Position numbers and translations under genes: made by a program
In this document: positions 3,901 to 55,132 of the stretch, one piece after another
Layout of the letters: the number at the start of each line of letters is the position of its first letter
Position numbering within the stretch: the first letter of the stretch is position 1
Notes under the pieces: model-generated
Databases searched by the model: none
Told to the model about the DNA's origin: nothing
The model's input: only the letters and a program-made list of their open reading frames with translations
Virus record (IMG/VR): IMGVR_UViG_3300023301_000009
Span: 1 to 61,770 of that record
DNA length: 61,770 nucleotides
Reading direction: 5' to 3' (one strand)
DNA from: a virus
Lineage: Duplodnaviria; Caudoviricetes

Positions 3901-5844
3901 AAGCTGGTATTGTGAACCCACACGGTACTTGTCAGAACTTTGCCCCGATTGGAACAACGACTGCTGTGCATTCTTGAACAGAAAATTCTTAGACGAGCTG
4001 ATACGTGTCGCAGCACCATCATCATCGTAGTTCAAGTTCGTGCGGCCAAGCTGGTTCCCCAAACCCGTGATCCCAAGCACCGCAGTGTCCAACGCTGCGA
4101 AATGCTCCGCAAGCGATCCATAAAGCAAGGGCACCTGTTGCAATCCCACCTGCGCGAATAGCTGCCCCGCAGAATTGTCAAGTATTGGGCCATCATGGTT
4201 ATTTGCCGCAACCCCACGACCTACGCTAATATCGTAGCCCATCTCCTTTACGCTCATGAGCTGGGGGATGGCAGTCCACACAAATCCGGGTTCGACTTCG
4301 CCCCCACTACCCGTGATTTCCTTATACGTGTTCGGGTACGTTGCAAGTCTCGCATGGTTCGCTGGTGGATTGCCTACCTCTTGCGCAAGTCCGGGATGGA
4401 AGGACGGATGCAGCGGCTCACTACCTGTTCCACCCACAGTGCGGGAGTGTGGTGCAGTCATCATCAGCAGCACATGGTGGACCGCAGGCGCGTTTTGGCT
4501 TACGAGCTTCGCCTCCATTGCTGCACTTACTGCTTCGGGCAGTAGCTGGTTATACCCATTCCAATATTGCGAGGGGAAAGTTTGGTACTTACTGTTTACA
4601 TATTGGTGCGCGCGAGTAAGCCCAGACTCAGGCGCGCCTTGAAATGGATCTGCCCACGAGCGTACGGCGTCGGTAGCCCAGCCTGCACTGAAGCGCTGGC
4701 CATCATCAATCTCGCCAGTAAGCACATGATCCCCGTCGTTAAGCATATCGCGGGTCATATCTGCGCGGACACCTCCCGACGTATACGCGCCTGACAACAT
4801 CTTGCGTACATGGAGAGGGGCAAGCGTCGTGCCTCCGCCGCCGGTACCATCAGCGCTCATGCGTATATTCGTAGTGCGGATGCACCAGCTCAGCTTAGTT
4901 CTATGTGACACGTCCTCGGGCAAGCTCGGGTGCTCAAGCTCGGGGTCTTCGTCTGGGGAAATATCCTCCTCCCACACCATGACGTTTAGTACGGCGGTGT
5001 ACGCTCCGGCTTTGCCAGATACCCAATTTGACTCATTTGCGTTCGTTGTAGAGTTGAAATGCGTACGTTGCGCGTCCAACGCGTTGCCGGGAACAATTAC
5101 ATACTCGTCTCCGACATTGACAGGGTTAAGAAACCCTTGGTCTATGCCTAGTGTGGTCGCAGACACGCGTGATGAAATCAGGTACGGATTACCCGTGTTA
5201 GCCCCGGTCAAGAAAATGACGTTGCATGCTGGCTCCTCAAACTCGATAACCCAATCGCCAACCGTGTACGCAGGCTCGAATGGTCCCGGAGCTATGGGTC
5301 CACCCGGTACGGTCAATAAATCTGAAACCCCCGCGAGTCTGTGATTGTCTGTGAACGCCTTATTCTCGTCGACCAACTCATTTGACGTTCCAACGGCTGT
5401 CACCTGCCCTCGGAACATCACATTGGCGAACTGCCTGTCTTCTGGGCTCTCGCCACCCAGCACAGAAATTCCTGTGTAGTCAAAGATTACGGACTCAGAA
5501 AGCCCGTCTTCGCTCATTGACTTCGTATCAAGTATTCCAAAAGGTGTGGTCAGCCTTCCCAACGTCACCGCAAAGTTATCCGCATTGCGAAGGGATGCAG
5601 GGTCGCTCGCTTCCACCGGTTGCACCTGCCATTCGCGGGCAAAATCTTGTGTGAGCGCGTACCCACGGTCTGCGCGCATGTGCTGGGAGGCGCTATGATT
5701 CAGTGCATCCACCGCGTCATTAAAATCCGCCGCCACTAGGGGTTTACCCATGTTGAGCTTAACCTTGGTGTACCCCTTCTCGGGCTTGAACGTGTCGTCA
5801 CGGGATACGTTGGGCTTGTTAGACGGATCAATGGGCATAGTCAC
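955..5844 (-). CDS. large tail fibre/baseplate-attached protein with DUF6519-like N-terminus
   Basis: 1629 aa; N-terminal SRDDTFKPEKGYTKVKLNMGKPLVAADFND and VWEEDISPDEDPEL..SHRTKLSW resemble DUF6519 fibres of contractile injection systems; lies after the baseplate genes. Confidence 0.7.
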   Translation of the reverse strand: MTMPIDPSNKPNVSRDDTFKPEKGYTKVKLNMGKPLVAADFNDAVDALNHSASQHMRADRGYALTQDFAREWQVQPVEASDPASLRNADNFAVTLGRLTTPFGILDTKSMSEDGLSESVIFDYTGISVLGGESPEDRQFANVMFRGQVTAVGTSNELVDENKAFTDNHRLAGVSDLLTVPGGPIAPGPFEPAYTVGDWVIEFEEPACNVIFLTGANTGNPYLISSRVSATTLGIDQGFLNPVNVGDEYVIVPGNALDAQRTHFNSTTNANESNWVSGKAGAYTAVLNVMVWEEDISPDEDPELEHPSLPEDVSHRTKLSWCIRTTNIRMSADGTGGGGTTLAPLHVRKMLSGAYTSGGVRADMTRDMLNDGDHVLTGEIDDGQRFSAGWATDAVRSWADPFQGAPESGLTRAHQYVNSKYQTFPSQYWNGYNQLLPEAVSAAMEAKLVSQNAPAVHHVLLMMTAPHSRTVGGTGSEPLHPSFHPGLAQEVGNPPANHARLATYPNTYKEITGSGGEVEPGFVWTAIPQLMSVKEMGYDISVGRGVAANNHDGPILDNSAGQLFAQVGLQQVPLLYGSLAEHFAALDTAVLGITGLGNQLGRTNLNYDDDGAATRISSSKNFLFKNAQQSLFQSGQSSDKYRVGSQYQLNPMASAQGSVHAIDPLVGTDTGKDIAIGEFVSGPGGYYLRDGTFIEVDSEDGWSHYMNDDLGVTGGNNPFSDTTRRKFEDGKAQAIMARDSLNFRKLAVKTSAHGEMDMFNYWIGDPNAITGPGATRAKSSMGLIQDATGAQNDAAASPENFQSYGETWDNTGDAGVLTNGKGSKSIEDATSDIKVDEQNGPWSRYALLPTDMKDVWENRNTTFRLRYHIGDFYPGPDGEEAGTKVNALVDTLNLYVRFDPLPLVHWATMPKHQHPALEASMSNLSGLDLFLDYLEGLGTTDHLLYFNEEPLVTETSPDAVGNGGTATVGDVDVTSRPFADKYQPFTHWYHPNMEHIEAPRPYESTGTGNNEYPGPATRYSVYAKWGERSLIIPSVVHNPSALRNKTSPDAQSTSTIDNFKASNNDADASEIMGSHYSMFGDTGDEHDMQMPDSTQVTVSGSDGFFPFVPEVSAIDPLDRTATAAEGYPGPVFVPAFRQYSGADADLDSNVDFHPLFKVRLDGYENEYAYWPDRDVVGTDSDSGDYFLYGRGSNDTDSSFDWSFPVMRAHISTPTVAGIVDLVRTKFAWDGSTIPNNALNKPGAGPEMTTDTSFVGDLGTSVNIDPAGLRERTSYLHPLVFSIPVDKTTLRPMQNAHYSEVYHDMFELAHAERTDAYGAGSDPTFAPLINTFKAVQHMGLAQKLLWNCSFRVLHTRPGGGQHSGMAFPLRSSKPKSLTELFVVRDRAEGVAKPMPKPPNAPEDKPYLHFESMHPSASGGGSFRQHPNHAQLGHLYPMISDSLGANSAGAGRNLYTKTLLDGDTRLTGADFDSPEHMMSMTGDTYNADPFDYAYNNAQDSSAKIAMNDRQNQNSGIEIDLVSELRYVRENKAAHGIDQMGSFGESWADMIPTVEEMTGPGDHELMFVLYTGKFGQQMVDSTVPNGFNPPFCGCRITASIEVNRPSEKNSSANGGTGEHYGLSLETYNVLGDS

Positions 5845-15363: not shown

Positions 15364-18300
15364 CTACCCGAGGTTCATGCCCTCGACCTTATCTCGAATC
15401 TTGTCACCAAGACGTTCCGATAACAACTCAACCAAATCGTCTAGGCCCTTGTCGTCTAGTGAGCTTGGGTCAACCCGTAAATTATCAATCTGTATTGGGA
15501 CTGTGACACTCACCGTGTGTGCCTCACTTCTGAGTTCACTGCTGTTGCTGCTTGAGTTCTCCACACTCGTCTGTTCTAGCACACGCATTGGGGACTCGGC
15601 CCTCGCTGGTTCAGCAGGCCCTTGGCCCGTGAACGCGCTAATACCTAGCCCGTCGGAAGCACTTGGAAAATCACCAAGAAGGTCTGCCCAAAAGCCTGGC
15701 ACGCTTCCACCGCCTGAATCAGCAACACCACTTATCTGCGCTTGGATATGGCTTGTGACTCCTGAGATAGCTTGGTCGACCGGCGCTTTCGCGCTGCGCA
15801 TCCCATCGGCCAGCATCTCCATGATGTTGCCACCCGCCTCGTCTGGGGGATTGTTCCGTAGCGGTCCTGCCTTGGCTGGGGAGAATGGTAGGAACTCGCG
15901 AACGCTGCTGACCGCTTCACCCATTGCACCTTTGACGGATTCGACTCCGGCCATGATGCCTTTGCGTATTGACTCCATAATTGACATACCAGCCCCGAAC
16001 CACGTATCCGGTGATAGCATCAGGTCAATGACACCACCCCAGAACGACACAACCCAATCCTTGTACGCAAGGAAGCCGCCTTTGACCAAGTTCCAAACAC
16101 CTTGGATTCCTACCCAGACAGCAGTAGCAGCACTGATGAACGCATCCTTAATAGTTGTACCTAGGCCACTAAAGAACTGTGTGATCTTTGCCCAATGGTC
16201 ATAGATTTTCTTCACGATTAGAACTATTGCGCCAATGATCAGCGCGGGGATACCGAGGAACAGCGCAGCAACGCCTGCGACGACCGCTATCGTGACATCG
16301 AGTATATCAAAGAATCCGCCCGTCCACGCGTCGACTGTTCCCCACAACGTATTTCGCAAATTCCACACCCATACAACCAGTGCAATAATTGCCGCGACCA
16401 GAAGTAAAGGCCATAGCACCATCACTGCTCCAAGCACTCCCACGACTAGCATCGCAGCCGCCAGCACAAGCATAACCCCTACCACAACGCCAAGCACGGC
16501 ACCCAACCATTTGAGTATGCCACCCATATTCTCTAGCATGCCTTTGGAGAACTCGACGTAGCCTAACATCTCCGCAATGGCGTCTACGAAGCCTAGAACT
16601 TTCTCGACGAGCCAACCTAGCACTGAACCCACCACCCCCATGACAGGAAGGAAACTCGACTTGAACCCATCCACCCATTCCTTAGCCAAGTGCCACGCGA
16701 CTGTGAATGTTTTACCTAGGTCTTTGGCTGTGTCACTCATCTCATCCCAACGCTCAGTGCTTACCCCTTTGCCGCTGATGACCCCGCGAATTAACTCCCA
16801 TGCGTGCACAACGTCTGTGACCCAGCCGTCAATAAAGTCTTTCAGTCCACCAAAATTTTCCCGATATGCCAAGGCCACTAGTGCGGTGGCCGCAACGATC
16901 GCGGACATCGCAAGGAGCACTGGGGTGATGGCAGCAAGCAGCGGCAGTAGTGCAGTCTCAAACAGCGCAGCTCCCGCAGCCGCAAAACTAAACCCTCCGC
17001 CTGCTACAGCGCCCGTAGGACCAAGAATCATCATTGCGCCCTGTGCGCCAGCCATAGCGCCAATGCCAACAGCTAAGATGGCAGCCAGTGCGGCCACCGC
17101 TACGGTCAGTCCTATAAACGCTTTAGCGAGGATTGGGTTCGCAGTAATAAGGCTCGTAATCACGTTGAGCAGGGGCGTCGCAAAGTCAAGTACGGGCACC
17201 ACGAAGGACTTGACCAGTTTACCTACAGCTATTTTCAAAAGGTCGATTGTGCTTGAGAGAATATTCCCTTTCCCCGTGACAGTGTTGAGAAAATTAGCCT
17301 GCGCAGCTTTGGCATCCCCATCTGCGGCCTCAATCCCTTGGGCGAACTCGTTGAAACTTTTCATCCCCTTATTCTTCATGAATTGTAGCTGCTTCTGAAA
17401 CATCTCGACAGCGCGCGCGTCCATGCCCTTAAACAAGTTCATGCCCACGTCAGCCTGTGACATTCCCTCGTCCATAGACTTCTGCATCTTGCCCGTGATG
17501 TTATCAATCAAGTCTGGGAGTGTGTTCATCTCTCCTGTCAGTTCATTGATAAAATCGCCTTTTTCGATACCTAGCGCGGTGAGCGCCTTAAACTTGTCCC
17601 CATTCCCACTTTCTAGTCCCTTGAGCACTTGCGGAATGGTGCGACTCAGCCCTCGTACCATCTGGGCAGACCTGCCCGCCGTTGTACCCATCGTGCGCAG
17701 TGCGCCAACCGTAGCTAGAATGTCCGCTGGGGCAGTATCCTTAAACGTGGTCGCAGTAGCACCAAGGCCACGCATGACTTGGTTCATCTCCGTCATGGAC
17801 AACTTTGACTTGTTCGTGAGGCGAATTAGCATATCCATCGTATGCCCTGTGCCCTCCGCTCCAGTCTGTAGCACTGCCATAGCGTTTGTCGCTAGGTCAG
17901 CAGCTTCCTCAAGCTCCACCGCTCCTGCCGACGCAGATGAAAACGCCTGTGTGCTGTCGATGGCCGAGAGCGCTTCTTTTGCTGAAAGCCCCGACTGGAG
18001 TAGGTTGGTAAACGCATCCTCGATATCCCTTGTCGTGAACTCAGTTTCGCGACCTAATTTTTGGATACGTTCTTCAATAAGGTCGAAGTCTTTGACTAGG
18101 CCCGGAAGCTGCGCACGGTCTCCGATCTTGCCCATGACCACTTCGATGTTATTCAGCCCCACCTCGTGCTCAGCGTATGAGTCCAGCGAGGATTCTAGCA
18201 CTGAGGTGATACCTGTAGCTATACCAGTGAGTGCACGTTGGGCCATTTGTAGCCCTTGGACCATGCGCTCGCTTTCATTAGTGACGTTCGTAGCCGCGTC

Positions 18301-18438
18301 GTCGAACTGGTCCATCCCCGTTTTGGCGCCATGCCCTGCCTGCTTCACTTGGTCCAGACCGTCACCAAGACGCCGCGCACTAGTGATCGCACCCTTGGCG
18401 TTTAGTTCTAGCTCAATTCCAATTACGCTGCCAGCCAT
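15364..18438 (-). CDS. tail tape measure protein
   Basis: 1024 aa; TP901-like core (KLGRETEFT..LLQSGLSAKE..EAADL), Ala-rich helices, hydrophobic segments. Confidence 0.92.
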   Translation of the reverse strand: MAGSVIGIELELNAKGAITSARRLGDGLDQVKQAGHGAKTGMDQFDDAATNVTNESERMVQGLQMAQRALTGIATGITSVLESSLDSYAEHEVGLNNIEVVMGKIGDRAQLPGLVKDFDLIEERIQKLGRETEFTTRDIEDAFTNLLQSGLSAKEALSAIDSTQAFSSASAGAVELEEAADLATNAMAVLQTGAEGTGHTMDMLIRLTNKSKLSMTEMNQVMRGLGATATTFKDTAPADILATVGALRTMGTTAGRSAQMVRGLSRTIPQVLKGLESGNGDKFKALTALGIEKGDFINELTGEMNTLPDLIDNITGKMQKSMDEGMSQADVGMNLFKGMDARAVEMFQKQLQFMKNKGMKSFNEFAQGIEAADGDAKAAQANFLNTVTGKGNILSSTIDLLKIAVGKLVKSFVVPVLDFATPLLNVITSLITANPILAKAFIGLTVAVAALAAILAVGIGAMAGAQGAMMILGPTGAVAGGGFSFAAAGAALFETALLPLLAAITPVLLAMSAIVAATALVALAYRENFGGLKDFIDGWVTDVVHAWELIRGVISGKGVSTERWDEMSDTAKDLGKTFTVAWHLAKEWVDGFKSSFLPVMGVVGSVLGWLVEKVLGFVDAIAEMLGYVEFSKGMLENMGGILKWLGAVLGVVVGVMLVLAAAMLVVGVLGAVMVLWPLLLVAAIIALVVWVWNLRNTLWGTVDAWTGGFFDILDVTIAVVAGVAALFLGIPALIIGAIVLIVKKIYDHWAKITQFFSGLGTTIKDAFISAATAVWVGIQGVWNLVKGGFLAYKDWVVSFWGGVIDLMLSPDTWFGAGMSIMESIRKGIMAGVESVKGAMGEAVSSVREFLPFSPAKAGPLRNNPPDEAGGNIMEMLADGMRSAKAPVDQAISGVTSHIQAQISGVADSGGGSVPGFWADLLGDFPSASDGLGISAFTGQGPAEPARAESPMRVLEQTSVENSSSNSSELRSEAHTVSVTVPIQIDNLRVDPSSLDDKGLDDLVELLSERLGDKIRDKVEGMNLG

Positions 18439-19969: not shown

Positions 19970-22501
19970 TTATAGTTCGGTGATTGTAGACTGGCCGGAT
20001 TCGAGCAAACCGAATCGGAACCGGATAAACTCAGCAGGCTTTTTAGGCGCAATTCCAATTTCGCCTAAAAGAACACCACTGTCGATCTCATCGCTTGTGG
20101 TCGTCGACTCGTCGATGCGCACGTAGAACGCTTCCTCGGAAGTACGTCCCGCCAGCATCTTGGATGAATGCGTGCGACGCAGAAATGTAGTAACGCGGTC
20201 GCTCAACTCTCCCCAAAGTAGGAAATCATTGTCACGAAACACAGCATAACGTGAACCCTCGATGATGGACTGCTCCACGTAGGTCAACAAACGGCGTACC
20301 TGAATGTAGCGCCATGTCTGTGAGCTGCTCAAAGTACGTGCGCCATAGACGGTCACACCCGGATTCGCGCTGCGCACGAAATTGCGGATCGCGTTAATGC
20401 CCTCGGGATTGAGTGTGCCTTGCACCTTGTCATCCACCTGAAATGCCAGACCAAGGACACCATGTATTTTACCGAATGCGCCTTCGCCAGCCGGAGCAGT
20501 AGACACGCCGCCGTTGGGTGGAGCCATTGCATCGACACGGGCGTACAACCCAAGAATGTGTCCTGAGTTCGGAACATCAACCACGCCGTTCTTCGCAGAC
20601 GACAGCGGGTCGGCTACGCGTAGCGCTGGGTAGTAGATCGCACCCCAAGCTGTGTCGAGGCCAAGCACGTTGGACCGGTAGTTAAGCGCAGCCTCCGGCG
20701 TCATTCCCACCTCAAAATCGAGAACGGGGTAACAGTCGTGACGGTCTTCCGAGTACGTCGAAAGGGCCGTGTGCACGATTGGGTTTGCCCCAATCGTTAC
20801 CGTACCCCCAAAGCTGGGAGGACAAGCCAAGGAGTTAATCGGTTGGCCGTCAAACACATACAGCCCAGTACGCGCTGTGGCGACACCCACCACGTCCGCG
20901 TCAGCAAAGCCTACAGTCTCCGACGTACCTCCCGTAAGGGGCGTCTTGCTCAAACCAACCGCGACGCTTTCAGGGAACAGGAGTTCATGGTCCTCCACCG
21001 TGATTGTGACCGAACCCAGTACGGTATCGTTAATCCGGGAAACAATAAAATCTTCCCTTGCAGGGTCAAACGATACACCTTCGATGGTCTCAAGAACGCG
21101 ACGCCCGTCGTAGACAATCAGGGTTACTTCTGTTGAGGCTAATGCCGTGGATGCTGAGGTAAATGAATTCACCAGCGCAGCATCAAGGAGTGCAGTGCGT
21201 GTTACTCCAGAACCGCTCACTTGGGTCGTGACGCCGAGCACCCGCACGAGTTCCATACTCATGCCGTCCACTAGCATTAGAATTGACCCTTCGGTGATTC
21301 CCTTTGCAGACACGAGCTGCAACTCATTTGAGCCAGCATTCGCGTCTACTGTTAGGGCAACCCCCGGTTCAGATTCTGCCTTTGGTGTGGCAGAGGCAAC
21401 AATGGCGAGGCGGTTTCCGTATTGGCCGGGGGACACGATCCCTTTATAACCAGCCCGGATGGTATATGGCAGTGACATCGACCCCGGCTGTCCACCAACC
21501 TGCTGCCCGTTTGCTAAGCCTAATGCAATGTCCAACCCTGTAGAGAAGTTACTGGACAGTAGGTCCGACGTTACGGCGCTAACAGACTCGTCCACAACGA
21601 CGAGCACCAGAAAACCAGCACGGCTGCCCACGTCAACTTGGGGATCGCTGTTACCATCTTGGACGTCACGGTCGAGCACGGTCTGTAGCTCAGCAAGGGA
21701 AACACTATCTGCATCCGCAACGTCGTTGCCCGTTGAAATAGCAGACCCAACACTGAATCCGGTTTCGGCGGCGAAGTCTGCGCCCACACTCACAATTTCG
21801 ATAGATGCGCTCGAACCCCTGCGGTCGGTACTGATTATAACGTCACCCGTTACAGTGCTTGCCTTAACGCCATCCATTAACTGCCCAAGCAAAGAAGCAT
21901 ACCCTGCTGCGTCAGCGGTAGGCGGCGTGTTGGTAGAAAGGTCAACCCTCTTGGTCGGACCCCCATTCACGCTGTAGTCCGCGAAGCACGAAGCGCCCGC
22001 AGTGGCGGGGAAGCTCGCGCTTGCTCCGGTCATCTCAGCAGGCTTGGTCGTGATGGTCGCAGTCTGGGGAGACCCTAAGTTCACAGCTAGGTCAAAGGTA
22101 TGTACCTCGCCAGTTGGTAAGACAACACCTTCGCTCATCGGACCACCTGTGAGCGTTGCATAAGCAGGACCACCAAACCCAGCAAGGTCTACTCCCGCCG
22201 CGCTGCCCACCAGCGTGTTCTTATCCGCAGGATCGCTGAGATGGCCAAGCCTGTTCACGTACACTTCCGTGCCGCCATTGTTAAAAAAGCCTCGTACGGC
22301 GTAGTGCAACGATTCACCGGCCATTGCCCCACCGTAGATTCGCTCAAAAGCAGCAAAGCTCTTCACGCTCACGGACTCACCAATGGGTCCACGCTGGGCA
22401 ATCCCTGCGATTCCGGCAACGGCTGTGCTCACCCCAGAAATGGGCTGTCGGCGAGTAGCCTCTTCGGTGATGCTTACGCCCGGTACTTGCGGTTGTGCCA
22501 T
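19970..22501 (-). CDS. tail sheath protein (extended)
   Basis: PGVSITE..ISGVSTAVAG..GP..SFAAFERIYG..FFNNGG; C-terminal LNPEGINAIR..GARTLS..WRYIQVRR..P.KPAEFI. Confidence 0.95.
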   Translation of the reverse strand: MAQPQVPGVSITEEATRRQPISGVSTAVAGIAGIAQRGPIGESVSVKSFAAFERIYGGAMAGESLHYAVRGFFNNGGTEVYVNRLGHLSDPADKNTLVGSAAGVDLAGFGGPAYATLTGGPMSEGVVLPTGEVHTFDLAVNLGSPQTATITTKPAEMTGASASFPATAGASCFADYSVNGGPTKRVDLSTNTPPTADAAGYASLLGQLMDGVKASTVTGDVIISTDRRGSSASIEIVSVGADFAAETGFSVGSAISTGNDVADADSVSLAELQTVLDRDVQDGNSDPQVDVGSRAGFLVLVVVDESVSAVTSDLLSSNFSTGLDIALGLANGQQVGGQPGSMSLPYTIRAGYKGIVSPGQYGNRLAIVASATPKAESEPGVALTVDANAGSNELQLVSAKGITEGSILMLVDGMSMELVRVLGVTTQVSGSGVTRTALLDAALVNSFTSASTALASTEVTLIVYDGRRVLETIEGVSFDPAREDFIVSRINDTVLGSVTITVEDHELLFPESVAVGLSKTPLTGGTSETVGFADADVVGVATARTGLYVFDGQPINSLACPPSFGGTVTIGANPIVHTALSTYSEDRHDCYPVLDFEVGMTPEAALNYRSNVLGLDTAWGAIYYPALRVADPLSSAKNGVVDVPNSGHILGLYARVDAMAPPNGGVSTAPAGEGAFGKIHGVLGLAFQVDDKVQGTLNPEGINAIRNFVRSANPGVTVYGARTLSSSQTWRYIQVRRLLTYVEQSIIEGSRYAVFRDNDFLLWGELSDRVTTFLRRTHSSKMLAGRTSEEAFYVRIDESTTTSDEIDSGVLLGEIGIAPKKPAEFIRFRFGLLESGQSTITEL

Positions 22502-25639: not shown

Positions 25640-26596
25640 TTATGCTGTGATGATGTGATGAACGTAATCATTTTCAAGCACTTTCGCACCCCAGATCCCA
25701 TACCACGCCAACCCATGCAAACGACCGAAGTCCTTTACACCATCGTCACGAAGCTCGACTGGTAATGCGTCAGCAAGGCCAATAGCTTGATCGGAAAACA
25801 GGGTTGCGCGGTATAGATCTGCGGCGGCAGCGCCCGTTCCAACAAGCGTCGCGTCGTACCCCGCGTCGGCACTTCCGGCAACGCCATTACCCTGATGCGT
25901 GGTTTGGATGAACACAACATCTTCCCAACGGCCAATTTCTCCGTTGAAGATTCGTCGTGAACCAGCATACCGCTGAGCGGAAATCCACTCAGGATCACGC
26001 TTGAGCGCAGCAGCCTGATGCGGATGCACAAAGCAGATGTAGAAATCGCCACGGAACTTTGGAGCGTTTGCCGTGCTTAGGTTCTCCACACCGAGGCGGA
26101 TCACTTCAACGTCCATAACGTCGTCATCGGTCACGCCAACCAACGCACTCGCACTCGGGTTGGCAAAAATCACATTGCCACCAGCCACCAGCGCATCGCG
26201 GAGCATGAGATCACGCACGGTAGCGTAGTCACGCCCCAAAAGGACTGAGCCTTCGGCCATCATGTCATCCCATGAAAGCTGCGCCAGCCGTTCGGTAAGC
26301 CCAATCGCGTTACCAAACTCCTTGACAAGAATCTTTGCCTCGGTGGCCGACATGCTCTTTGTCTCCAGTGAGATGCCCTCCGTCAGCTCTCCACCTCGTG
26401 CCAGATTGTTGTAGGTTGTGACCGTGATACTATCACCGGGCGCAGTTCCGAGTTCGGTCTTTTGGACCGCGAACTCCTCGTAGCGCATAACACCCATCGC
26501 CTCATGCTCAATATCGAGCGAGTAGATGGAGCGAAGCGCAGATGGATTTGCCACCACGTTTCCCGAAGTATCTGTACCTGTATACTGATTAGCCAT
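25640..26596 (-). CDS. major capsid protein (N4-gp56 family)
   Basis: GDSITV..LTEG..EFGNAI..YICFVHPHQ..L..DPEW..IFNGEIGRWEDVVF..DFGRLHGLAWYGIWG. Confidence 0.92.
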   Translation of the reverse strand: MANQYTGTDTSGNVVANPSALRSIYSLDIEHEAMGVMRYEEFAVQKTELGTAPGDSITVTTYNNLARGGELTEGISLETKSMSATEAKILVKEFGNAIGLTERLAQLSWDDMMAEGSVLLGRDYATVRDLMLRDALVAGGNVIFANPSASALVGVTDDDVMDVEVIRLGVENLSTANAPKFRGDFYICFVHPHQAAALKRDPEWISAQRYAGSRRIFNGEIGRWEDVVFIQTTHQGNGVAGSADAGYDATLVGTGAAAADLYRATLFSDQAIGLADALPVELRDDGVKDFGRLHGLAWYGIWGAKVLENDYVHHIITA

Positions 26597-27704: not shown

Positions 27705-28097
27705 CTAGTTTTGCTTACGACTGTCGAGTGTGACCACCATGTCACCGTTGTTATATTTCATATCAGGAATCATGGCGTTGTCAATCGAAACTGTCCCGAT
27801 GGCCTCGCGTGTGTCCTCTAAATCTAGCCCTACGCGATGCAAGTCGTGGGCGGTGGCGAGGTACAAAATCATCTCGTTTTCTGTAGCTAGCTCCTCACGC
27901 ACAAGCACCTCAAGGCGCTTTTTCGTTTCGGTTAGACTTTGCTCCCTGCGTTGCAACGCCTCAAACCGTTGGAGCAACTGCGCTTTTAATCGGTTTGTCA
28001 ATAAGTCGAGATCGTCAGCAAGGTTCTTCAACGCAGGTCCAACGCCCGCAATGTTATTCTCTGTTGGTTCCAAACTTATTCTCCCTAGATTCTTCAC
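27705..28097 (-). CDS. hypothetical coiled-coil protein
   Basis: 130 aa in the head operon. Confidence 0.6.
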   Translation of the reverse strand: MKNLGRISLEPTENNIAGVGPALKNLADDLDLLTNRLKAQLLQRFEALQRREQSLTETKKRLEVLVREELATENEMILYLATAHDLHRVGLDLEDTREAIGTVSIDNAMIPDMKYNNGDMVVTLDSRKQN

Positions 28098-31000
28098 TCA
28101 TCAACGCGACCGCTGGTGCATGTGTGTTGACAGTAGCTGTAATTATTTCTTCATTCAAGGCTAACTCTTTGGTGATGGCCTTGAGTAGCGACTCGGCCTC
28201 CACCTTAGATCTCTTCGCTTTTATCTCGCTGTACGTTGTGAACTCCTTTCGCTTCTGTGTATCAAGCAGCGTAAGCGGTGACATGCGGTCTTCAACTTTT
28301 ACTACCTCGTCGAGCGCAGACAGTATCATACCTTTTTGTTGCATCAGCTCCAGACGCCGCCGGTCTGTGTTCGAGTCTACATTCGTTAGGACATACGAGT
28401 CCACATCCTTCTTCTGCTTCGTTCGCCAGTTGCGTGCTTCCCGCTGCGCGAATTCCGCAAAGGTCCACGGCGTGTCGAAGTGAATCGTGCCAGTAGATTT
28501 CTTTTGAAGGTTCACGCCCGTCGAACCCGCGCGAGTCACAAGTAGCGTGTCGTACTCTCCTGAGTTAAACTTTTGTTTGGCGGTCGACTTCTCCGCGTCG
28601 CTCATGCCACCATGGTATTCGCCTACAACCAAGCCCTTAGATTCTAAAGCGGCCCTAAGCATGTTCTTTGACCCTATTCGCTCAAGATGAATAATCGGCT
28701 TCTTGTCTTTAAGCTCGTTGTCTAGCAGGCGGACGACCTCCTGTGCTTTGGCATTCGTCTTCCAATCGCCTCCGTGAATATTTTTATGGTGCTGGTTGTT
28801 TCTCCATGATTCAGGGTTGAACGTATTCTTAACTCCTTCAATCCTATCCCGATATTTAATCGCACGCTTCATCTTGCGGGACCGCATCCCTGTCGGCCTA
28901 AACTTGTTCGGGTCTATGTCCGTGTCGTACAACACCTTTTCGAGTTCTGGGAACTCTTGAAAATACGCACGTAGACTCGCTTCATCATCTGTCCTTTGGC
29001 TGCGCAATTTCACCTTCGCCTCCGCGTCCATTTTCAACTGGCGCATCTTGAAGCCGGTAAACTCTCCTTCAATCTGTGCAGCACGCTCCTTCTGCTTAGG
29101 CGTCATGGTTAACTCTCTAAGATACTTCGCTTTCTCTGCATCTGAACGCTTCGTCCCATCGGGGTGATAATCTCTAAATGGGTTATTAAGTCTCTTATCC
29201 AGCGGTGACGCTCGCGTAAACGTGTAGGTATCCATCTCCCGTCGGAGCTGCGCCACCATCGACTCGCCAAACACGTTCGAGTTGAGCGTGATATTATCGT
29301 ACTGCTTCGTGAATTCATCTTTGGGCGGAAACTGGCCGGGGTTCAACCAGTTCGATATATCCCAAAACTCACCCATGTTGTTCTTAGCTGCCGTGCCTGT
29401 AAGGCCGACGCGGTACTTCAACCTTCCACCAACCAGCTTTTGTAAACCCTCCGCTTTAGCAGACCCTCCCGTCGGACTCGCAGACGTCATCTGGTGAATC
29501 TCATCAATAGCCATAAAGTCAAACGTGTCCTTAGCCTGTGCAGCGGACGCCGCCAAATCATCATGTGAGATGATCGTGAACAGCGCACCATCTCTTCTGT
29601 CCTCTGCATAGTTGCGCTCCATTGCCACCACATCGTCTTGGAATCCCTTGACCGTGACTCTCGTTAGGCGTGTCGCAATCTCAGCTTCGATTGTGTCGGC
29701 GTACGCTTCTGGTAATCTACTACGGTCTGGTAGTTTCTCACCATCCTCGCCACGGACAAATGGCACGTTCTCCATAACTACATCTCGCACCTTCTCCCTG
29801 ATATCACGCTCAACATCAACCCTGCTGCTGGCAGACGTATAGAGAACGATCTTACCCTTCTCGTTGAACTGCATGATCTCTTGTACCATTTGGTTCCTAA
29901 GTGCCGCAGGCGTTGATATACACCCCGCGTCAATTTCACCCTTAGCATGCAGGTCGGAGACCGCCCCAATGATAGTTGGGGTCTTACCTAGCCCAGCCCC
30001 AAAGTGGAGGAGCGACTGCTTGGCCTCCTCAATGAATTTGATGCCCGACTGCTGCTCGACGTGCATGGCAATTTTGAACCCACCCGTGGGGTCATCGGTC
30101 TCCGGTTGCCACGCCTCGATATGATCTTGCATCCCCAGCGGTGAGATCGCTATTTCATCTGCCTTGATGCGGCGCAGCAAGTCATTTCTTTTCGCATGCT
30201 TCTTTAGCGGCCAAGTGCTTGTTGCCTGCGGGTCCATCTCGACTATGTACTTACCCTTGTCCTTGAGTATCTTGTATGCGCCAGACTCAGGTGGGAATCC
30301 GTTGGCAAGCATAAACTGCCCTAACTCCTCTTTCGTGGTTGCAGAGTTTGAGTGCATTGGCTTACGCTCTCCACCTATATGATTCTCAAGCGACTGGAGA
30401 AGTGCGGCATTTGTTCCAGCCTGTTGCAACTCCCTCGCATACTCCATGCGAATGTTCGCTACCTCCGTAGCCTTAGTGATTGAGCTGAGTGCAGATTCGC
30501 CTAGTACCGCTGCCTCCAACTTATCCCTATGCTCTCCTGCTTTGTTAACACCCTCCATAATCTGCGGTAGCATCCGCTCTTTAATCTCTTGGAGCGTTCC
30601 GCGCATTCGCACACGGTCGAAACCCTCAACCTGCGCCATAAGCAGATTCGCCGCCCCGTCAATTCCCAGCATCGACGCCGCGTGTCTGTCAAATTGCGCG
30701 TTGATTCCCATCTCGCCTGCAACAGCATTAAGCGACGCAGCTACGTTATCTGGAACTTGGCTGGATGACATCGTGTCTTTAGGAAATGGCCTATTCTCAA
30801 CCAGTTGGTCGAGAATAAGCATGCTCAGCTCCTTTGGTGGATGCCACGGCTCTTGGTAGCACATGCAATGCGGGTGGGGCAGACTCGGATATTCCACAAC
30901 TAGGTACATACCCGATATGTCCACATCGCTTAGGTCTACGTCGAACTCCGCGAGCTTTGCTATAACGCCAGCTCCTGTGCCTGATGCCAGTATCTCACAT

Positions 31001-31821
31001 ACCTCATGTCCGCTGTGCCACGCGTGGCTACTGCTCAACCGCCAGTAGCTAAACGCCACCCCTAACTCTTTGTACAAAGCCAAGTTTGCTTCTCTCGCCG
31101 CGCGGGCCTGTTCAGTCCTGTTGATGCGTTGCAGCGACTTGCCCACGGAGCCGCCGTCAACTCTCGTATGCCCCGGCTTTGGGTCGTGTAACCCCCGGCG
31201 CATGTAGTCCATCGCCTTCGTGGAATCCTCGCCGAGCTTAGACTTGATAACACGGTCGTAGCGCAGCTTCGCCTTCCCCGCTTCTCTTGCTAGCCGATCC
31301 TTAGTTGTAGTCTGCGTTCCGGGGAACGGATTGTTCATCGCATTGTTCGTAGCAGTGGCCGAGAGCTGGGCGAGCTTCGCGTCTGTTTGCTTCGGGATGC
31401 CGAGCTTTGCAAGTACCTCAGACTGTGCCCGCAGGTCTCGTTGGACTGCGAGTGCAATGTTTGACTTCATGGACTCTTGAACCTTCCCCATTGCCCCACG
31501 AATCTGTGTGTTCGCTAGTTGGTCTAACTCTAAGCGTGCCTTGGTTGTAAATTCACCAGACTCGGTGCGCGAGCTTTTATTCTTCTCACGGACCTCTGCT
31601 GAGAACGCTACTGTCCCATCCCTGAAATGCTGTCGTAGTGTGCCCGCCTGTTTATGTGATTGGCGTAACGACGTACCCCTAGCACCACGCATTTCTTCTG
31701 GGCCACGCTGAATCAGCTCTTGGCCAATAGCCGCTTCGTCTACTGTCACTCCACCCACCTTGGCCGCATCAACGGGCGTGCTCGATTCGGGTCGCTCATT
31801 TTCTTCTGGTCTCTCAGCCAA
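28054..31821 (-). CDS. MuF/minor capsid (head morphogenesis) protein fused to SNF2-type SF2 helicase
   Basis: N-terminal RINRTEQARA..YWRLSSSH..C..PHPHCMC; C-terminal GAGLGKT, TPAAL, DEIH, LTGT, YHGG, TRAGSTGVNLQ, FDTPW, QREARNWR; directly after portal. Confidence 0.85.
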   Translation of the reverse strand: MAERPEENERPESSTPVDAAKVGGVTVDEAAIGQELIQRGPEEMRGARGTSLRQSHKQAGTLRQHFRDGTVAFSAEVREKNKSSRTESGEFTTKARLELDQLANTQIRGAMGKVQESMKSNIALAVQRDLRAQSEVLAKLGIPKQTDAKLAQLSATATNNAMNNPFPGTQTTTKDRLAREAGKAKLRYDRVIKSKLGEDSTKAMDYMRRGLHDPKPGHTRVDGGSVGKSLQRINRTEQARAAREANLALYKELGVAFSYWRLSSSHAWHSGHEVCEILASGTGAGVIAKLAEFDVDLSDVDISGMYLVVEYPSLPHPHCMCYQEPWHPPKELSMLILDQLVENRPFPKDTMSSSQVPDNVAASLNAVAGEMGINAQFDRHAASMLGIDGAANLLMAQVEGFDRVRMRGTLQEIKERMLPQIMEGVNKAGEHRDKLEAAVLGESALSSITKATEVANIRMEYARELQQAGTNAALLQSLENHIGGERKPMHSNSATTKEELGQFMLANGFPPESGAYKILKDKGKYIVEMDPQATSTWPLKKHAKRNDLLRRIKADEIAISPLGMQDHIEAWQPETDDPTGGFKIAMHVEQQSGIKFIEEAKQSLLHFGAGLGKTPTIIGAVSDLHAKGEIDAGCISTPAALRNQMVQEIMQFNEKGKIVLYTSASSRVDVERDIREKVRDVVMENVPFVRGEDGEKLPDRSRLPEAYADTIEAEIATRLTRVTVKGFQDDVVAMERNYAEDRRDGALFTIISHDDLAASAAQAKDTFDFMAIDEIHQMTSASPTGGSAKAEGLQKLVGGRLKYRVGLTGTAAKNNMGEFWDISNWLNPGQFPPKDEFTKQYDNITLNSNVFGESMVAQLRREMDTYTFTRASPLDKRLNNPFRDYHPDGTKRSDAEKAKYLRELTMTPKQKERAAQIEGEFTGFKMRQLKMDAEAKVKLRSQRTDDEASLRAYFQEFPELEKVLYDTDIDPNKFRPTGMRSRKMKRAIKYRDRIEGVKNTFNPESWRNNQHHKNIHGGDWKTNAKAQEVVRLLDNELKDKKPIIHLERIGSKNMLRAALESKGLVVGEYHGGMSDAEKSTAKQKFNSGEYDTLLVTRAGSTGVNLQKKSTGTIHFDTPWTFAEFAQREARNWRTKQKKDVDSYVLTNVDSNTDRRRLELMQQKGMILSALDEVVKVEDRMSPLTLLDTQKRKEFTTYSEIKAKRSKVEAESLLKAITKELALNEEIITATVNTHAPAVALMSEESRENKFGTNRE

Positions 31822-31861
31822 AGCTACTCCACGTCATGCTAATATATATTTCGGTCTCGGC

Positions 31862-33400
31862 TTACGCCAAGTCTCGCTGTGCAGCGATGGAACGCTTCTC
31901 GCCTTGCACGGTCGGCTCAGGCCGGGTCGGGTTTGGGTTGCCACCCCGATTTGCTTGTTCTTTATCTGGCATCAGCTCTTGCCCGATATTCATCTCAAGC
32001 TGCGCACGTCGCACAAGCTCCTCCTCGCCTACCTTCATGGTGCGCGTAACCTCGGCCTGCGACTTGCCCATGTTCTCCATTTCTTCTTCCCGTGTACTCA
32101 GCCCAAGATCCAGACGCTTGCCCGCCTTCTCCAGCTCCATAAGCTCATCGCGTGGAAGTGGGTCGGGGAACGTGACCTGCGTTCTATAGCGATTCTCTTT
32201 TGGCAGCTTCACCATCTTACGTCTGAACGTAGTGTTCATTAAGGCTTCAAACTTGAGCATGAGCCTGTTCACTTTGCACAGCCCAATCCCATAGGTCAAG
32301 ATTTTCAGGTTCCGTCTCTCATACATAGGCAAGAAGCGCATCGCGAGCGCGACCGCAGATTCCTTACCTCCCCCGCCCATCGCCGCTGGCGGCACGTCGC
32401 CTATTTCGTGCAAATGGTCACGCAGCCTATCGAGGTACGTCAGTGACGTTCCAAGTTCGCCATCTAGTGCTAGGTTCTCGACCGAGGAGTCCATAGGCAT
32501 TGTCCACATGCGGTTAGCGCCGCGTTCGACCTGCCCCAGCTTTGCCCCTTTAACAATCGTGACTGGGCTGCCCTGATAATTGATCACATCGGACACGTCC
32601 GTCATTTTCTCGTTGTACTCGCGGTTCAGCTCCTCCACCAATTCAATATCGCTATCACCATAATGACTCGTTCCGCTGGGGACGTTCGGTACATGTACTA
32701 ACGGAATCTCGCCTAGCACGTTCTTTCGCTCAGTGAGTTCGTTACCGTCCCAGATAAGCACCTTGTCGGGATACCAAGTTTCAATAACAAGCTGGACGAC
32801 CTTGTTCCCCTTCTTGGCCGAGCCTGCTCGCGTTGGCGCGTCTTTATACTCAGGGTACACAATAGTCACGTTCTCCATCTTGGAATTCGGATTCCCCGCT
32901 GGTCCCGAGAACACTGGAAACACCTGCTTGGAATGCAGGATCTCAGCTTTTGGGTATGAGACTGCTGCCGTGTCGTCGTCCTCCTCCCAAGAGACCCGCA
33001 CAAACAAGTCTCCCGTCACGCTCCCCATCTGTCCTGCTTTCCACGCCCATAAGTTCTTATCGTTTAGTGACCAAATGCGTTCGAGCTTCTGTCGGACAAA
33101 CTCGCGCTCGGCTTCCTCGTTCACATCTGTGCTTGGGTCATCGGGAACCACGAGCTTGAACCCCTTACCAAACGTGAAGTTCGTGTGCTTGTTCGCAAAC
33201 TTCTTGCAATAGTTCACCGTCACGACCGGATCGTCTGTCGGAGTCGCGTAGGTCCAGTGCTTACCCTCATAGAAATTCCAGTGCTTCTTATATCTGCGCA
33301 GCCGAATCCGATGCTCCTCTTCTAGCTCCGTCGCAATAGACATCGCAGAGTGGCGAGTTTTCTCAGTTGGAAAATCTCTAAACAGTTCCATTAAACCCAC
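31862..33400 (-). CDS. portal protein (SPP1 gp6-like)
   Basis: WNFYEGKHW..VNYCKKF..GEIPLVHVPN..YGDSDI..LNREYN; position after terminase. Confidence 0.9.
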   Translation of the reverse strand: MGLMELFRDFPTEKTRHSAMSIATELEEEHRIRLRRYKKHWNFYEGKHWTYATPTDDPVVTVNYCKKFANKHTNFTFGKGFKLVVPDDPSTDVNEEAEREFVRQKLERIWSLNDKNLWAWKAGQMGSVTGDLFVRVSWEEDDDTAAVSYPKAEILHSKQVFPVFSGPAGNPNSKMENVTIVYPEYKDAPTRAGSAKKGNKVVQLVIETWYPDKVLIWDGNELTERKNVLGEIPLVHVPNVPSGTSHYGDSDIELVEELNREYNEKMTDVSDVINYQGSPVTIVKGAKLGQVERGANRMWTMPMDSSVENLALDGELGTSLTYLDRLRDHLHEIGDVPPAAMGGGGKESAVALAMRFLPMYERRNLKILTYGIGLCKVNRLMLKFEALMNTTFRRKMVKLPKENRYRTQVTFPDPLPRDELMELEKAGKRLDLGLSTREEEMENMGKSQAEVTRTMKVGEEELVRRAQLEMNIGQELMPDKEQANRGGNPNPTRPEPTVQGEKRSIAAQRDLA

Positions 33401-33402
33401 GG

Positions 33403-33591
33403 TCAGCTCCTAGTCCCTTGGTTCTTTCTACCCGCGCTAATCCGGGCACGGTACAAAATACCCTCTCGGTAGGTAGCATTAAACGAACCCTTTGCCGATT
33501 GGCTGCCATCATGAAAATACTTGACTAGGGTCTTGACCTGCTCGGTCCCTGCCATATCAAGTTTTGTCGGTTTGTCAATAACTTTGGTCAT
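33403..33591 (-). CDS. small hypothetical protein
   Basis: Coupled to the terminase stop; alternative start ATG 33554. Confidence 0.45.
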   Translation of the reverse strand: MTKVIDKPTKLDMAGTEQVKTLVKYFHDGSQSAKGSFNATYREGILYRARISAGRKNQGTRS

Positions 33592-35408
33592 TTTACCCTG
33601 TTCTTAAATGATGGGCGGCGCGACTGCGTGTTGTTGACAAGTCTCTCACGTCCGTACCTTTTGGCATCCTCAGTAGCACTGCGGTCGTAAAATGGGTTGT
33701 CTGCCGATTCGACTCTGTACTCACCAGTGCCATTGACGAGCCAGCATAGCATCATCCACGAATCTGGGTAATCGTCCTTTGCAGTCGAGTTACCAAATTT
33801 GAGCCTATTGCCCTTGTGGTTGGACGGCGCTTCGACAACCATGTGCTTTCCTTTCCAGATCTTTACAAGTTCGGTCGTCTGTTGCACGAACCGTTTCCAC
33901 TTGCGCATACGCTGTGCCCCGGCCCCCGCCGGGTACGTGATTCGCTCCTTTGTAACCTCCTGCTTGAGCAGCTTATATCCACGATGCTTTGAGACCCGGC
34001 TGAAATTGAACGGACGAACGCGGACCTCGCCTTCTATCCCGTGCTCCGGTGCGCCATATTGCAGGTCGTATCTCATTCGATCGTAGATCGGTTCACCCCG
34101 CCCGGTCGAATCGACAATGACCTGTGACACGCTATAGTTTCCCAGAAAATCTAGTATTTGTGGGTACTGCACCTCATGATCGTCGCCGTGAATCTCCAGC
34201 CAGTTCACAACGTGCAGATAATATCGCTGGTCGCCTGAGTATGCTATCGGATTGTCCCACCACACCCGGCCAATCGTGACAACGGTCGAATCTTTGCTCC
34301 GTCCAAAGTCAATGGAGGCTACCTGATCCCGTGTTGTCCTGTCATGTGTAGCTGGGTAGTCTGGTCTCACGAACGTGGTGCGCACGATGTTGGCACCGTC
34401 ATAAACTTTCGCCTTGAGCTTGTCGCGGTTCACGATACCAAGGCTGTCCAACTGCTCGGGTGCAATAAACTGCGAACGCTCTATAAGCCAGTGAAGCCTG
34501 TACGCCATGCGAAATTCGTCAGAGTCGTACCCAAGCCGCTCAATCTCTTTCTTAACATAGCGGTTGTATTTCGGGTTCGCCTTTGCTGCCGCGTGGTAGT
34601 CAAATCGGAAGTGTCGCTGTAGCTGGTGCGTCTCTTTCTCAAGGTCATGCTTCCTACCTCGTGCGCAGGCGTCGTAAAAATCATTCCTGTGCGGGTTCGG
34701 TGTACCAATCTTCACGATGGTACCGTTGGTTGCAGCCAACATAGGATGAATCGACTTTTTGAGTTTGTAGTTCGATATATCCTGCGTCTCCTCGCACAAT
34801 ACTAGATGGTATGTCTTGCCCTCGATATTCGTTTGTGGCCCCGCTGAGTTACAATCGACAAAAGAACCATTGCGCAGTCTGAGAATTTTGGAACCAAACC
34901 CCGGCTCCATGTCAATCTCAGGATCTCGAAGCGTATCGCGCATTTGCTCCGATGACATGCGCATTGCCATACGGCGGTGCATGATTCCAGACTGCTCGTA
35001 GGTCGGCGCGAAAATACCTACCCACAGCCCATCCTTGAACTGGGAGATCCGCGAATCCTCTTTAATCCCGTCGATGGTCGCTAGAATTGGGAGGATGACC
35101 TCACACCCGCACACTATGTTCGCGACTGTCTCAGTCTTACCCGCTTGCCTACTGAACAATGCTGTAATCTCGTCGCCGTCGTTGAGTAGAATGGACTGTA
35201 TAACCCGCAGGCCAAACTGTGCCTGAAATGGGAATAGCTTAACTCCAGTCGACGCTTCGCAGAAGGCGAATACCTTGTCCGCGATATCCAACACCTCCTC
35301 GCGTGTCAGTATAAGATTCTCTTCCAGCGCGTAGCCTTCTGTGGCATCGTTCTGCTCATCCCAGGTTTCGATGCTGTGTGCGTCTGGCTCTTGGTAAAAC
35401 TCTGTCAC
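33588..35408 (-). CDS. terL: terminase large subunit
   Basis: Walker A SRQAGKT, Walker B LVLCEETQ, GTP coupling motif, nuclease SIDFGRSKD..VDSTGRGEP..KDDYPDS. Confidence 0.92.
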   Translation of the reverse strand: MTEFYQEPDAHSIETWDEQNDATEGYALEENLILTREEVLDIADKVFAFCEASTGVKLFPFQAQFGLRVIQSILLNDGDEITALFSRQAGKTETVANIVCGCEVILPILATIDGIKEDSRISQFKDGLWVGIFAPTYEQSGIMHRRMAMRMSSEQMRDTLRDPEIDMEPGFGSKILRLRNGSFVDCNSAGPQTNIEGKTYHLVLCEETQDISNYKLKKSIHPMLAATNGTIVKIGTPNPHRNDFYDACARGRKHDLEKETHQLQRHFRFDYHAAAKANPKYNRYVKKEIERLGYDSDEFRMAYRLHWLIERSQFIAPEQLDSLGIVNRDKLKAKVYDGANIVRTTFVRPDYPATHDRTTRDQVASIDFGRSKDSTVVTIGRVWWDNPIAYSGDQRYYLHVVNWLEIHGDDHEVQYPQILDFLGNYSVSQVIVDSTGRGEPIYDRMRYDLQYGAPEHGIEGEVRVRPFNFSRVSKHRGYKLLKQEVTKERITYPAGAGAQRMRKWKRFVQQTTELVKIWKGKHMVVEAPSNHKGNRLKFGNSTAKDDYPDSWMMLCWLVNGTGEYRVESADNPFYDRSATEDAKRYGRERLVNNTQSRRPSFKNRVK

Positions 35409-54575: not shown

Positions 54576-55132
54576 GCGCCATCCGTAGGATCATTAGTGA
54601 CATGATCATACCGTTGCGCAGCCGAGTCTTGAACCCCACCTGCAATTCGGCTTGGCAACTTGTTTCGCAGACGCACTGCCAAATCCTCCGGCCCGACCTC
54701 AGTGTCATCTTCCCAAATTGGCTGCGACTGCAAAAATGCCAACCCGTTTCCTTTGCGCATCTTAACCGTCAGCGGCGCTTCAGTCCTAAATACAACATCA
54801 ACTCTGCGGTTACCCGCAAACACCAATGATGCGTCTCTTGCCGCAACATAGTCGTCCGTCTCGAATGTAATCTTTTGCTCACCCCATGACAGGCATTCAT
54901 GAATAAGTGCTGGGGGAAGACTCGTTTCTCTTGCTCCGATATAAATACGGTCGACTTCATACACGCTTGCAAGTGCACGCAGCTCATCTGGCAGGAACCG
55001 CTCACCGCCCGCATCTGAAACTCCAGACGCGACGTTGCCAATATTATCCTGCTCCACATCGAACACGAACAGCGTCAGGTCGCCACGCCCTACTGGCTCT
55101 TTCTCTTCGTCAACAAACGCGCTGTACTTCAT
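54572..55132 (-). CDS. hypothetical protein in modification cluster
   Basis: 186 aa, translationally coupled on both sides. Confidence 0.6.
   Translation of the reverse strand: MKYSAFVDEEKEPVGRGDLTLFVFDVEQDNIGNVASGVSDAGGERFLPDELRALASVYEVDRIYIGARETSLPPALIHECLSWGEQKITFETDDYVAARDASLVFAGNRRVDVVFRTEAPLTVKMRKGNGLAFLQSQPIWEDDTEVGPEDLAVRLRNKLPSRIAGGVQDSAAQRYDHVTNDPTDGA

Follow-up and report, generated by a model that had tools for sequence, protein, structure and literature searches.

Enzymes that travel inside the virion belong to the phage proteins that the host encounters first, and to our knowledge only a few kinds of them are known, namely T4 Alt, N4 vRNAP, P1 DarB, and the MuF toxins. SPP1 gp7 is described as a protein whose strong interaction with the portal brings a few copies into the interior of the procapsid; it is dispensable for assembly and supports the start of infection (PMC6316719). 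Toxins fused to gp7-like proteins have been proposed to reach the host (PMC6316719, PMC5576092), and P1 DarB is presented as a methylase-helicase component of the head that protects incoming DNA against type I restriction (PMC5512222). Both MuF and the SNF ATPase are named by Iyer et al. 2017 among the hub domains of polyvalent proteins, where the fusions given for MuF are with PBECR, 2H, RelA/SpoT, PRTase, zeta-kinase, and ART, and SNF2 is paired with an adenine methylase (PMC5512222); the main text of Jamet et al. 2017 has 0 mentions of 'helicase' and of 'SNF2' (PMC5576092). The window analyzed here is the whole of the IMG/VR virus record IMGVR_UViG_3300023301_000009 (Duplodnaviria; Caudoviricetes), a linear stretch of 61,770 bp with a completeness of ~50% by CheckV, and the subject is its gene P0001, which joins a MuF-like head morphogenesis domain, a linker, and a Snf2-type motor in a single frame next to the portal gene.

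By its sequence, the C-terminal part of ~680 residues is an intact Snf2-type ATPase, predicted to depend on double-stranded DNA for its activity. Among the Pfam models, Helicase_C matches the fusion protein at 4e-13 with 50 bits (cut-off 23.5), ResIII also matches, and SNF2-rel_dom, with its cut-off of 24.9 bits, scores 24.0 bits when the whole protein is searched and 25.9 bits when the search is confined to residues 570-1255. A sequence search of the PDB gives 29 distinct chains, 26 of which are named Snf2 remodellers, including Chd1, SsoRad54, Snf2, DDM1, INO80, Rad26, and ISWI. The AlphaFold2 (AF2) model of residues 340-1255, computed from 17 sequences (predicted local distance difference test (pLDDT) score 78.6, predicted template modelling (pTM) score 0.62), leads to the same family, as the top 50 rows of the Foldseek search against the PDB are all Snf2-family ATPases (E 1e-16 to 1e-13). 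By the usual definitions of the Snf2 motif set, motifs I, Ia, II (DExH), III, V, and VI are present in the motor with their catalytic residues complete. An alignment of 17 fused homologues, 20-45% identical to the target, shows no variation at G610, G612, K613, and T614 of Walker A, D773, E774, and H776 of the DExH motif, T808-G809-T810, G1102, N1104, Q1126, R1130, and R1133, and therefore the motor is under selection as an active ATPase. The residues of the MuF core are invariant there as well, and the motifs of both halves are not a chance occurrence. The ten motifs quoted in the initial annotation were all found where it had placed them, and the intact Snf2 half that it claimed is borne out by Pfam, PDB sequence matches, fold, and invariant motifs alike. 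No methylase domain is detected by Pfam in the fusion protein, and neither of the two methylase families searched for, PF02384 and PF01555, occurs in the window or in three records of the fused form, one of them a complete genome.

The N-terminal domain is very probably a distant member of the MuF superfamily that present Pfam models miss. Along nearly its entire profile, phrog_1657 ('head morphogenesis') matches residues 44-342 at 1.9e-13, and phrog_4728 is also matched. Structurally, the domain combines long helices with a small C-terminal core that carries RINRTE, W260, H266, C275, and PHPHCMC, and its AF2 model (residues 1-345) is confident, with a pLDDT of 91.2 and a pTM of 0.88. When a profile of this family is aligned by hhalign with a gp7-family profile built from 23 proteins, all of them PF04233, 188 columns are colinear at an E value of 1.1e-4, with R-x-x-R-T-E in register. 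The residues conserved in the gp7 family (R188 T189 E190, W216, H228, and C265-x-C267) find their likeness in those conserved in the new one (R232, E237, W260, H266, and C319-x-C321). Searches with hidden Markov models (HMMs) are borderline: the HMM of the new family scores 8 of 42 gp7 relatives above 10 bits, the best at 20.3, and none of the 42 reversed controls (best 7.6). Among predicted viral structures (BFVD), Foldseek returns 57 matches at E<=1e-3 with TM-scores on the query (TMq) up to 0.59; of the best 50 of these, 35 are named, and 30 of the named ones are minor capsid, head or capsid morphogenesis, or MuF-like proteins, the remaining five being three uncharacterised proteins, one capsid maturation protease, and one ADP-ribosyltransferase of 1192 aa. 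The nearest named clusters in the ESM-Atlas are PF06152 and PF04233 (score 0.95, 169/256 features shared), which is taken as a lead only. Of the MuF signature that had been claimed at residues ~220-330, the motifs are in place and follow the conserved pattern, and a Pfam profile match is not found.

The joining of the two halves recurs in a family of relatives. An exhaustive HMMER search with residues 1-580 against 1.84 billion representatives yielded 108 proteins, 85 of which are shorter than 450 aa and match residues ~40-330, and 16 of which (1016-1518 aa) also carry a helicase like that of the target (phmmer E 1e-222 to 1e-19). The ten fused clusters that were looked up have 'superfamily II DNA or RNA helicase' as their sole name and come from metagenomes throughout. 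A scan of IMG/VR gave 46 loci, in eight of which the MuF part and the helicase lie in one frame (three of the eight look like copies of one sequence); one further locus has a helicase frame cut at its 5' end and then a capsid gene, and at the other 37 the Snf2 helicase is unrelated and stands by itself, without a MuF, portal, or capsid gene in the vicinity. In each of the eight full fused loci, the portal is followed by the fusion and then by the capsid gene. Loci that extend far enough also show TerL ahead of the portal, and a scaffold-like gene, where one is recognisable, falls between the fusion and the capsid gene. In these eight, the fusion frame starts <=15 nt from where the portal frame ends or overlaps that frame.

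Unfused forms occur among close relatives. A scan with the MuF part gave 23 loci, and in 13 of them the TerL, portal, and capsid genes closely match those of the window (E ~1e-200, 1e-142, and 1e-100, respectively), making these loci nearer to the window in structural genes than most of the fused ones. They carry a stand-alone MuF protein of 322-324 aa after the portal, followed by a scaffold-like gene. The helicase is absent from all five unfused records searched, one a complete genome of 84,945 bp with terminal repeats, and the same search, as a positive control, detects it in five of five fused records, solely inside the fused frame. With stand-alone MuF proteins in close relatives and the helicase missing from such records, the motor is optional cargo. 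No locus of the two IMG/VR scans has the MuF and helicase parts as separate, successive genes. The MuF domain tree has 85 rows, 24 of the 108 hits having been dropped because residues 135-318 were not fully covered by their match. Fused and unfused forms are interleaved in it; nine changes are needed on the best tree, and its starred branches force at least six. For the 17 fused proteins, the MuF half and the helicase half give the same major groups. As judged from these sequences, the two halves are inherited together in a family of metagenomic myoviruses, a history that fits one old fusion with repeated loss, or a pair moved as a unit.

Further searches gave little. A tblastn search of 50,697 phage records gave 14 partial helicase matches only, all below 60% identity, and a word-based search of 5.8 billion proteins returned only the fusion protein itself and two Streptomyces SNF2 proteins. 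Scanning IMG/VR with the fusion protein as a single query gave nothing. Among 185,579 species genomes there is no prophage relative; the sole match is a helicase-only locus on a Bacillus thuringiensis plasmid, which therefore gives no clue to the host. The nearest helicase relative in an isolated phage forms the C-terminal Snf2 core of a protein of 1715 aa, called 'putative helicase', in Thermus phage Lalka27a (L071:1428-6575). The gene for this protein lies between tail protein and baseplate genes, and its first ~1190 residues have no Pfam match.

Taken as a whole, the protein may well be a head-internal MuF carrier with an enzyme as its cargo, delivering a virion-loaded Snf2 translocase without a methylase, a reading drawn by analogy and held with about even confidence. 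In this scheme, the MuF part would bind the portal during procapsid assembly, as gp7 does, and a few copies of the 140-kDa protein would be enclosed in the head. At infection, the protein would leave through the portal and the tail channel along with the DNA, and the Snf2 motor would then track along the entering phage DNA, fuelled by host ATP. Most likely it would displace or outrun host proteins that attack or silence the DNA and so serve in counter-defence; less likely, it would help to draw the genome in or to start its expression. Since close relatives manage without the motor, it is unlikely to be central to assembly or DNA entry, and an accessory, host-dependent role, most plausibly counter-defence, would fit best. 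With no methylase partner found, the action would be mechanical, by displacement or competition, not by modification of DNA. A more specific version is less likely than not: that a methylase-free Snf2 motor injected on a MuF carrier clears or outruns, by purely mechanical means, host defence complexes such as restriction, DISARM, or Zorya-type trackers and is repeatedly lost or kept among sister phages according to the host.

Several findings count against virion delivery as the explanation. The dispensability of the motor in relatives, which argues against a core role in DNA entry, fits any accessory role. The Snf2 part reaches none of the NCBIfam equivalog cut-offs, the best being the SCO1167-type, DISARM DrmD, and ZorD models, all far below theirs (for DrmD, 41-44 bits against a cut-off of 610-950), and the function of the motor is not narrowable from sequence. 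Moreover, a megablast search of the gene against the 50,697 phage records gave no match among isolated phages, that is, no cultured relative.

The same protein could also act without ever being injected. It is rather improbable, in our judgment, that it stays tethered at the portal vertex and works in the producer cell as a helper of packaging or head completion, for instance by clearing proteins or branched DNA from the concatemer. Its gene does lie within the packaging module, between the portal and capsid genes, and Mot1 and RapA are Snf2 enzymes that strip proteins off DNA. Snf2 enzymes are likewise described as removing proteins from DNA in the account of polyvalent proteins (PMC5512222), but gp7-type proteins are reported to sit inside the procapsid, on the far side from the incoming DNA (PMC6316719). 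The 13 close relatives, moreover, have the same TerL, portal, and capsid genes and carry MuF alone, with the helicase missing wherever it was searched for, and packaging therefore does not need it.

Nor is there much probability that the fusion has no meaning for delivery at all, a late Snf2 helicase of replication, recombination, or transcription having been joined by chance and then being cleaved free or remaining cytoplasmic in the producer cell. Stand-alone Snf2 helicases of 500-700 aa are common outside structural modules, as the 37 unrelated viral loci attest, and the fused gene holds the only Helicase_C match in the 61.8-kb record, both of which speak for such an origin. Against it, the fusion has been kept, with congruent histories of the two halves, down to 20% identity; the linker is conserved, and split MuF and helicase forms are seen at no locus. 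In addition, no prohead protease was recognised near the gene in PHROG and Pfam scans of the neighbourhood.

A further explanation, which we regard as improbable to a still greater degree, is that the N-terminal domain is unrelated to MuF and gp7 and belongs to some other helical head or portal-associated protein, in which case the analogy with gp7 targeting would be void. What speaks for it also tells against the assignment to MuF and against the delivery reading. A match of the N-terminus to the MuF or Phage_min_cap profiles, named beforehand as a test, was not obtained: on residues 1-360, neither PF04233 Phage_Mu_F nor PF06152 Phage_min_cap2 matches even at E<=10, whereas SPP1 gp7, the positive control, matches PF04233 at 6.8e-33. 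No MuF model of Pfam matches in the six-frame translation of the record, the NCBIfam MuF model does not match, and PF04233 is found in none of the 86 family members (the target domain and 85 homologues), PF06152 likewise being unlisted. The hhalign probability is only 56.8% between the two families and 3% against gp7 alone, and the gp7-family HMM finds nothing in the new family above the reversed-sequence control. Without a Pfam MuF match, the kinship has to be carried by the remote evidence of PHROG, hhalign, Foldseek, and the ESM-Atlas. Structural searches of solved proteins gave no help either, with no Foldseek match in the PDB at E<=1e-3 for the MuF-like model and only generic helical bundles, no solved relative, in VIA-align over 48,161 chains; the best of these, a dynamin-like stalk (Z 10.7, root-mean-square deviation 3.6, 162 residues aligned), is below the level that is meaningful for helical proteins. 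A bridge to PF04233 or PF06152 was sought with Pfam in the distant MuF-like open reading frames (ORFs) L062-L070, and none was found. A predicted complex of the portal and the MuF-like domain, run without controls, scored 0.00 and has no bearing either way. Nonetheless, descent from the MuF superfamily is favoured by the colinear alignment, in which the RTE, W, and H motifs coincide, by the R-T-E ... W ... H ... C-x-C pattern, invariant or nearly so in both families, by the excess of gp7-family proteins over reversed controls in the HMM search, and by the viral fold matches together with the PHROG name. As a separate observation on this domain, H266, C275, H316, C319, and C321 (window 30859-31044, minus strand) are invariant in the 17 fused proteins and present in at least 90% of the 86 sequences; H228 and C265-x-C267 of the gp7 family are likewise conserved, and the His/Cys set may be a metal site.

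Finally, the probability that an assembly error or a frameshift made one long frame out of two genes, which the initial annotation had named as grounds for giving up the fusion, is practically negligible, as the 16 fused clusters, the nine viral loci, the conserved linker, and a second assembly with 0 differences rule it out. In that assembly, made from a public run, positions 28054-31900 lie within one contig of 41,910 nt at a depth of 31.5 with 0 gaps; the run, the sole DNA run containing the stretch, is possibly the source sample itself. It is labelled a hypersaline lake metagenome, and no RNA run is listed for the stretch. The fusion protein is not acidic, with a net charge of ~+3 over its length, unlike the proteins of salt-in halophiles.

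The features of the gene and its surroundings are collected in the table. Nearly every gene of the record lies on the minus strand, and the structural module, with sheath, tape measure, and baseplate genes, is of the myovirus type. Its order is TerL, portal, fusion, two small ORFs, the scaffold-like ORF, and the major head protein, with neck, sheath, tape measure, and baseplate genes also in the module. The fusion gene starts with TTG at 31821, with GGAG 5 nt upstream and the portal stop 40 nt before. The slot that had been proposed next to the portal and upstream of the capsid is confirmed by the family matches of both neighbours (PF05133 for the portal, phrog_1357 for the major head protein); as for a place before scaffold and capsid, the capsid holds, and the scaffold is named from its position and conserved homologues, no PHROG or Pfam family having matched the gene. 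The small ORFs downstream of the fusion gene match no PHROG or Pfam family either, and no immunity gene is evident.

Features of the fusion gene and its neighbourhood (positions in the 61,770-bp window; residues of the fusion protein)
Feature	Residues	Positions	Strand	Basis or description
Terminase large subunit (TerL)		33588..35408	-	phrog_2, 4.5e-21
SPP1-type portal, directly upstream of fusion gene		31862..33400	-	PF05133 SPP1_portal 2e-24; phrog_64 1.3e-32
Fusion gene P0001		28054..31821	-	1255 aa, single open frame without internal stop
Scaffold-like ORF, 267 aa		26636..27439	-	Position; homologues between MuF and major capsid genes in relatives
Major head protein		25640..26596	-	phrog_1357 3.7e-49; PF13252 6.9e-14
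Sheath		19970-22501
Tape measure		15364-18438
MuF/gp7-superfamily-like head morphogenesis domain	44-335	30817..31692	-	phrog_1657, AF2, Foldseek, hhalign
Linker	336-580	30082..30816	-	Long helical hairpin and small alpha/beta unit
Snf2-type two-lobe ATPase core	581-1165	28327..30081	-	Pfam, PDB sequences, fold
C-terminal tail	1166-1255	28057..28326	-	Helical, poorly conserved
RINRTE	232-237
W.LSSSH	260-266
PHPHCMC	315-321
Walker A		29980-30000	-	Within Snf2 core
GAGLGKT	608-614
DEIH	773-776	29494-29505	-	Within Snf2 core
LTGT	807-810
YHGG	1069-1072
GSTGVNLQ	1099-1106
FDTPW	1115-1119
Motif VI		28423-28446	-	Within Snf2 core
QREARNWR	1126-1133

The remaining parts of the protein vary more among the relatives. 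The linker has no Pfam match, is modelled by AF2 at a pLDDT of ~70-85, and is conserved in the closer fused relatives only, a phmmer search with the linker alone giving seven proteins (P0004-8, P0022, and P0023). Lobe 1 of the motor has a 100-aa insertion in the closer relatives, and in the tail region the pLDDT falls below 50 at model residues 833-855.

Other arrangements were met among the distant homologues. A C-terminal ATLF-like domain, which has a zinc metallopeptidase fold, is found above the cut-off in L068:1-1203 (6e-8) and L069:1544-3328 (1e-7), and the ATLF-bearing gene of L069 follows a portal-like ORF; here the MuF-like carrier bears a different cargo. The MuF-like core is joined to regions with no Pfam match in P0027, P0069, P0108 (~610 aa), and L062:6275-8575 (767 aa), and it lies at the C-terminal end, at residues 2676-2786, of the 2829-aa P0104, the rest of which has no Pfam match. 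A Pfam search of seven long homologues that lack the helicase found no informative domain; the match in P0110 looks like a spurious one of low complexity. The TerL frame of L049:2263-5079 has 939 aa against ~540-590 aa in other relatives, which suggests an insertion, perhaps an intein. In the window itself, an adjacent pair of a GT4-type glycosyltransferase (PF13439, 6.6e-7) and a MobA-like nucleotidyltransferase (PF12804, 2e-12) at 55129-56813 (minus strand) may represent a sugar-modification pathway, which does not establish modification of DNA; eight further large ORFs from the non-structural half gave no Pfam match. The tail and baseplate module has at its far end a 1629-aa ORF (955-5844, minus strand) with no PHROG match, probably a fibre or host-recognition protein.

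If the delivery reading is true, the conserved MuF-Snf2 fusion adds a methylase-free, ATP-driven DNA motor to the enzymes that virions deliver. It is a clear and testable prediction, in which the function is put forward by analogy. Phages whose structural modules are nearly identical, some carrying the motor and some lacking it, form natural pairs in which the benefit of such a motor to the phage could readily be compared. Furthermore, the work defines a MuF-like family (phrog_1657 type) outside the reach of the present Pfam MuF models, and surveys of MuF cargo built on those models therefore overlook it.

Among known systems, SPP1 gp7 and Mu gpF (the MuF superfamily PF04233 and PF06152; MuF1-4, PMC5576092) are the closest to the carrier. 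They share with it the place of the gene directly after the portal, seen in the window, the eight fused loci, and the 13 unfused ones, stand-alone forms of ~300-330 aa, the R-T-E ... W ... H ... C-x-C pattern, a fold that matches viral MuF-like and minor-capsid models (themselves predicted), and variable C-terminal cargo on a carrier. Unlike them, the new family, which has its own phrog_1657, lies below the detection of both Pfam models and NCBIfam. The MuF polymorphic toxins of temperate phages, as described in PMC5576092, similarly combine an N-terminal MuF carrier with an exchangeable C-terminal module that is present or absent among close relatives. Their cargo, however, is a small toxin and not a 680-aa ATP-driven motor, and the fusion differs from them further in having no prophage relatives in the species genomes searched and no evident immunity gene.

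The polyvalent proteins and the DarB dyad of P1 (PMC5512222) resemble the fusion in that a phage SWI2/SNF2 ATPase is tied to virion genes and is predicted to travel with the DNA. The nearest helicase matches in cultured phages likewise belong to two giant proteins, one of 1715 aa and one of 1820 aa with an N6-methylase, whereas the fusion protein has two modules only and no methylase domain. P1 DarB takes a route that depends on DarA and Hdf, in contrast to the MuF carrier of the fusion. The cellular and defence Snf2 ATPases (RapA, DISARM DrmD, Zorya ZorD, SsoRad54, and Chd1) have the two-lobe core, the motif set, and the helical insertions in common with the motor, which nonetheless forms a phage subfamily of its own, marked by its linker and, in the closer relatives, by the lobe-1 insertion.

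The fusion had at first been taken to have no characterised precedent, a claim that holds in part. No description of a plain MuF-Snf2 fusion was found in the literature covered, although one may be listed in the supplementary tables of domain architectures that accompany Iyer 2017 and Jamet 2017, which lie outside it; MuF-cargo fusions and virion SWI2/SNF2 modules, on the other hand, are already in print (PMC5512222). An optional cargo together with variable modules is the behaviour that the published accounts describe for MuF carriers and polyvalent proteins (PMC5576092, PMC5512222).

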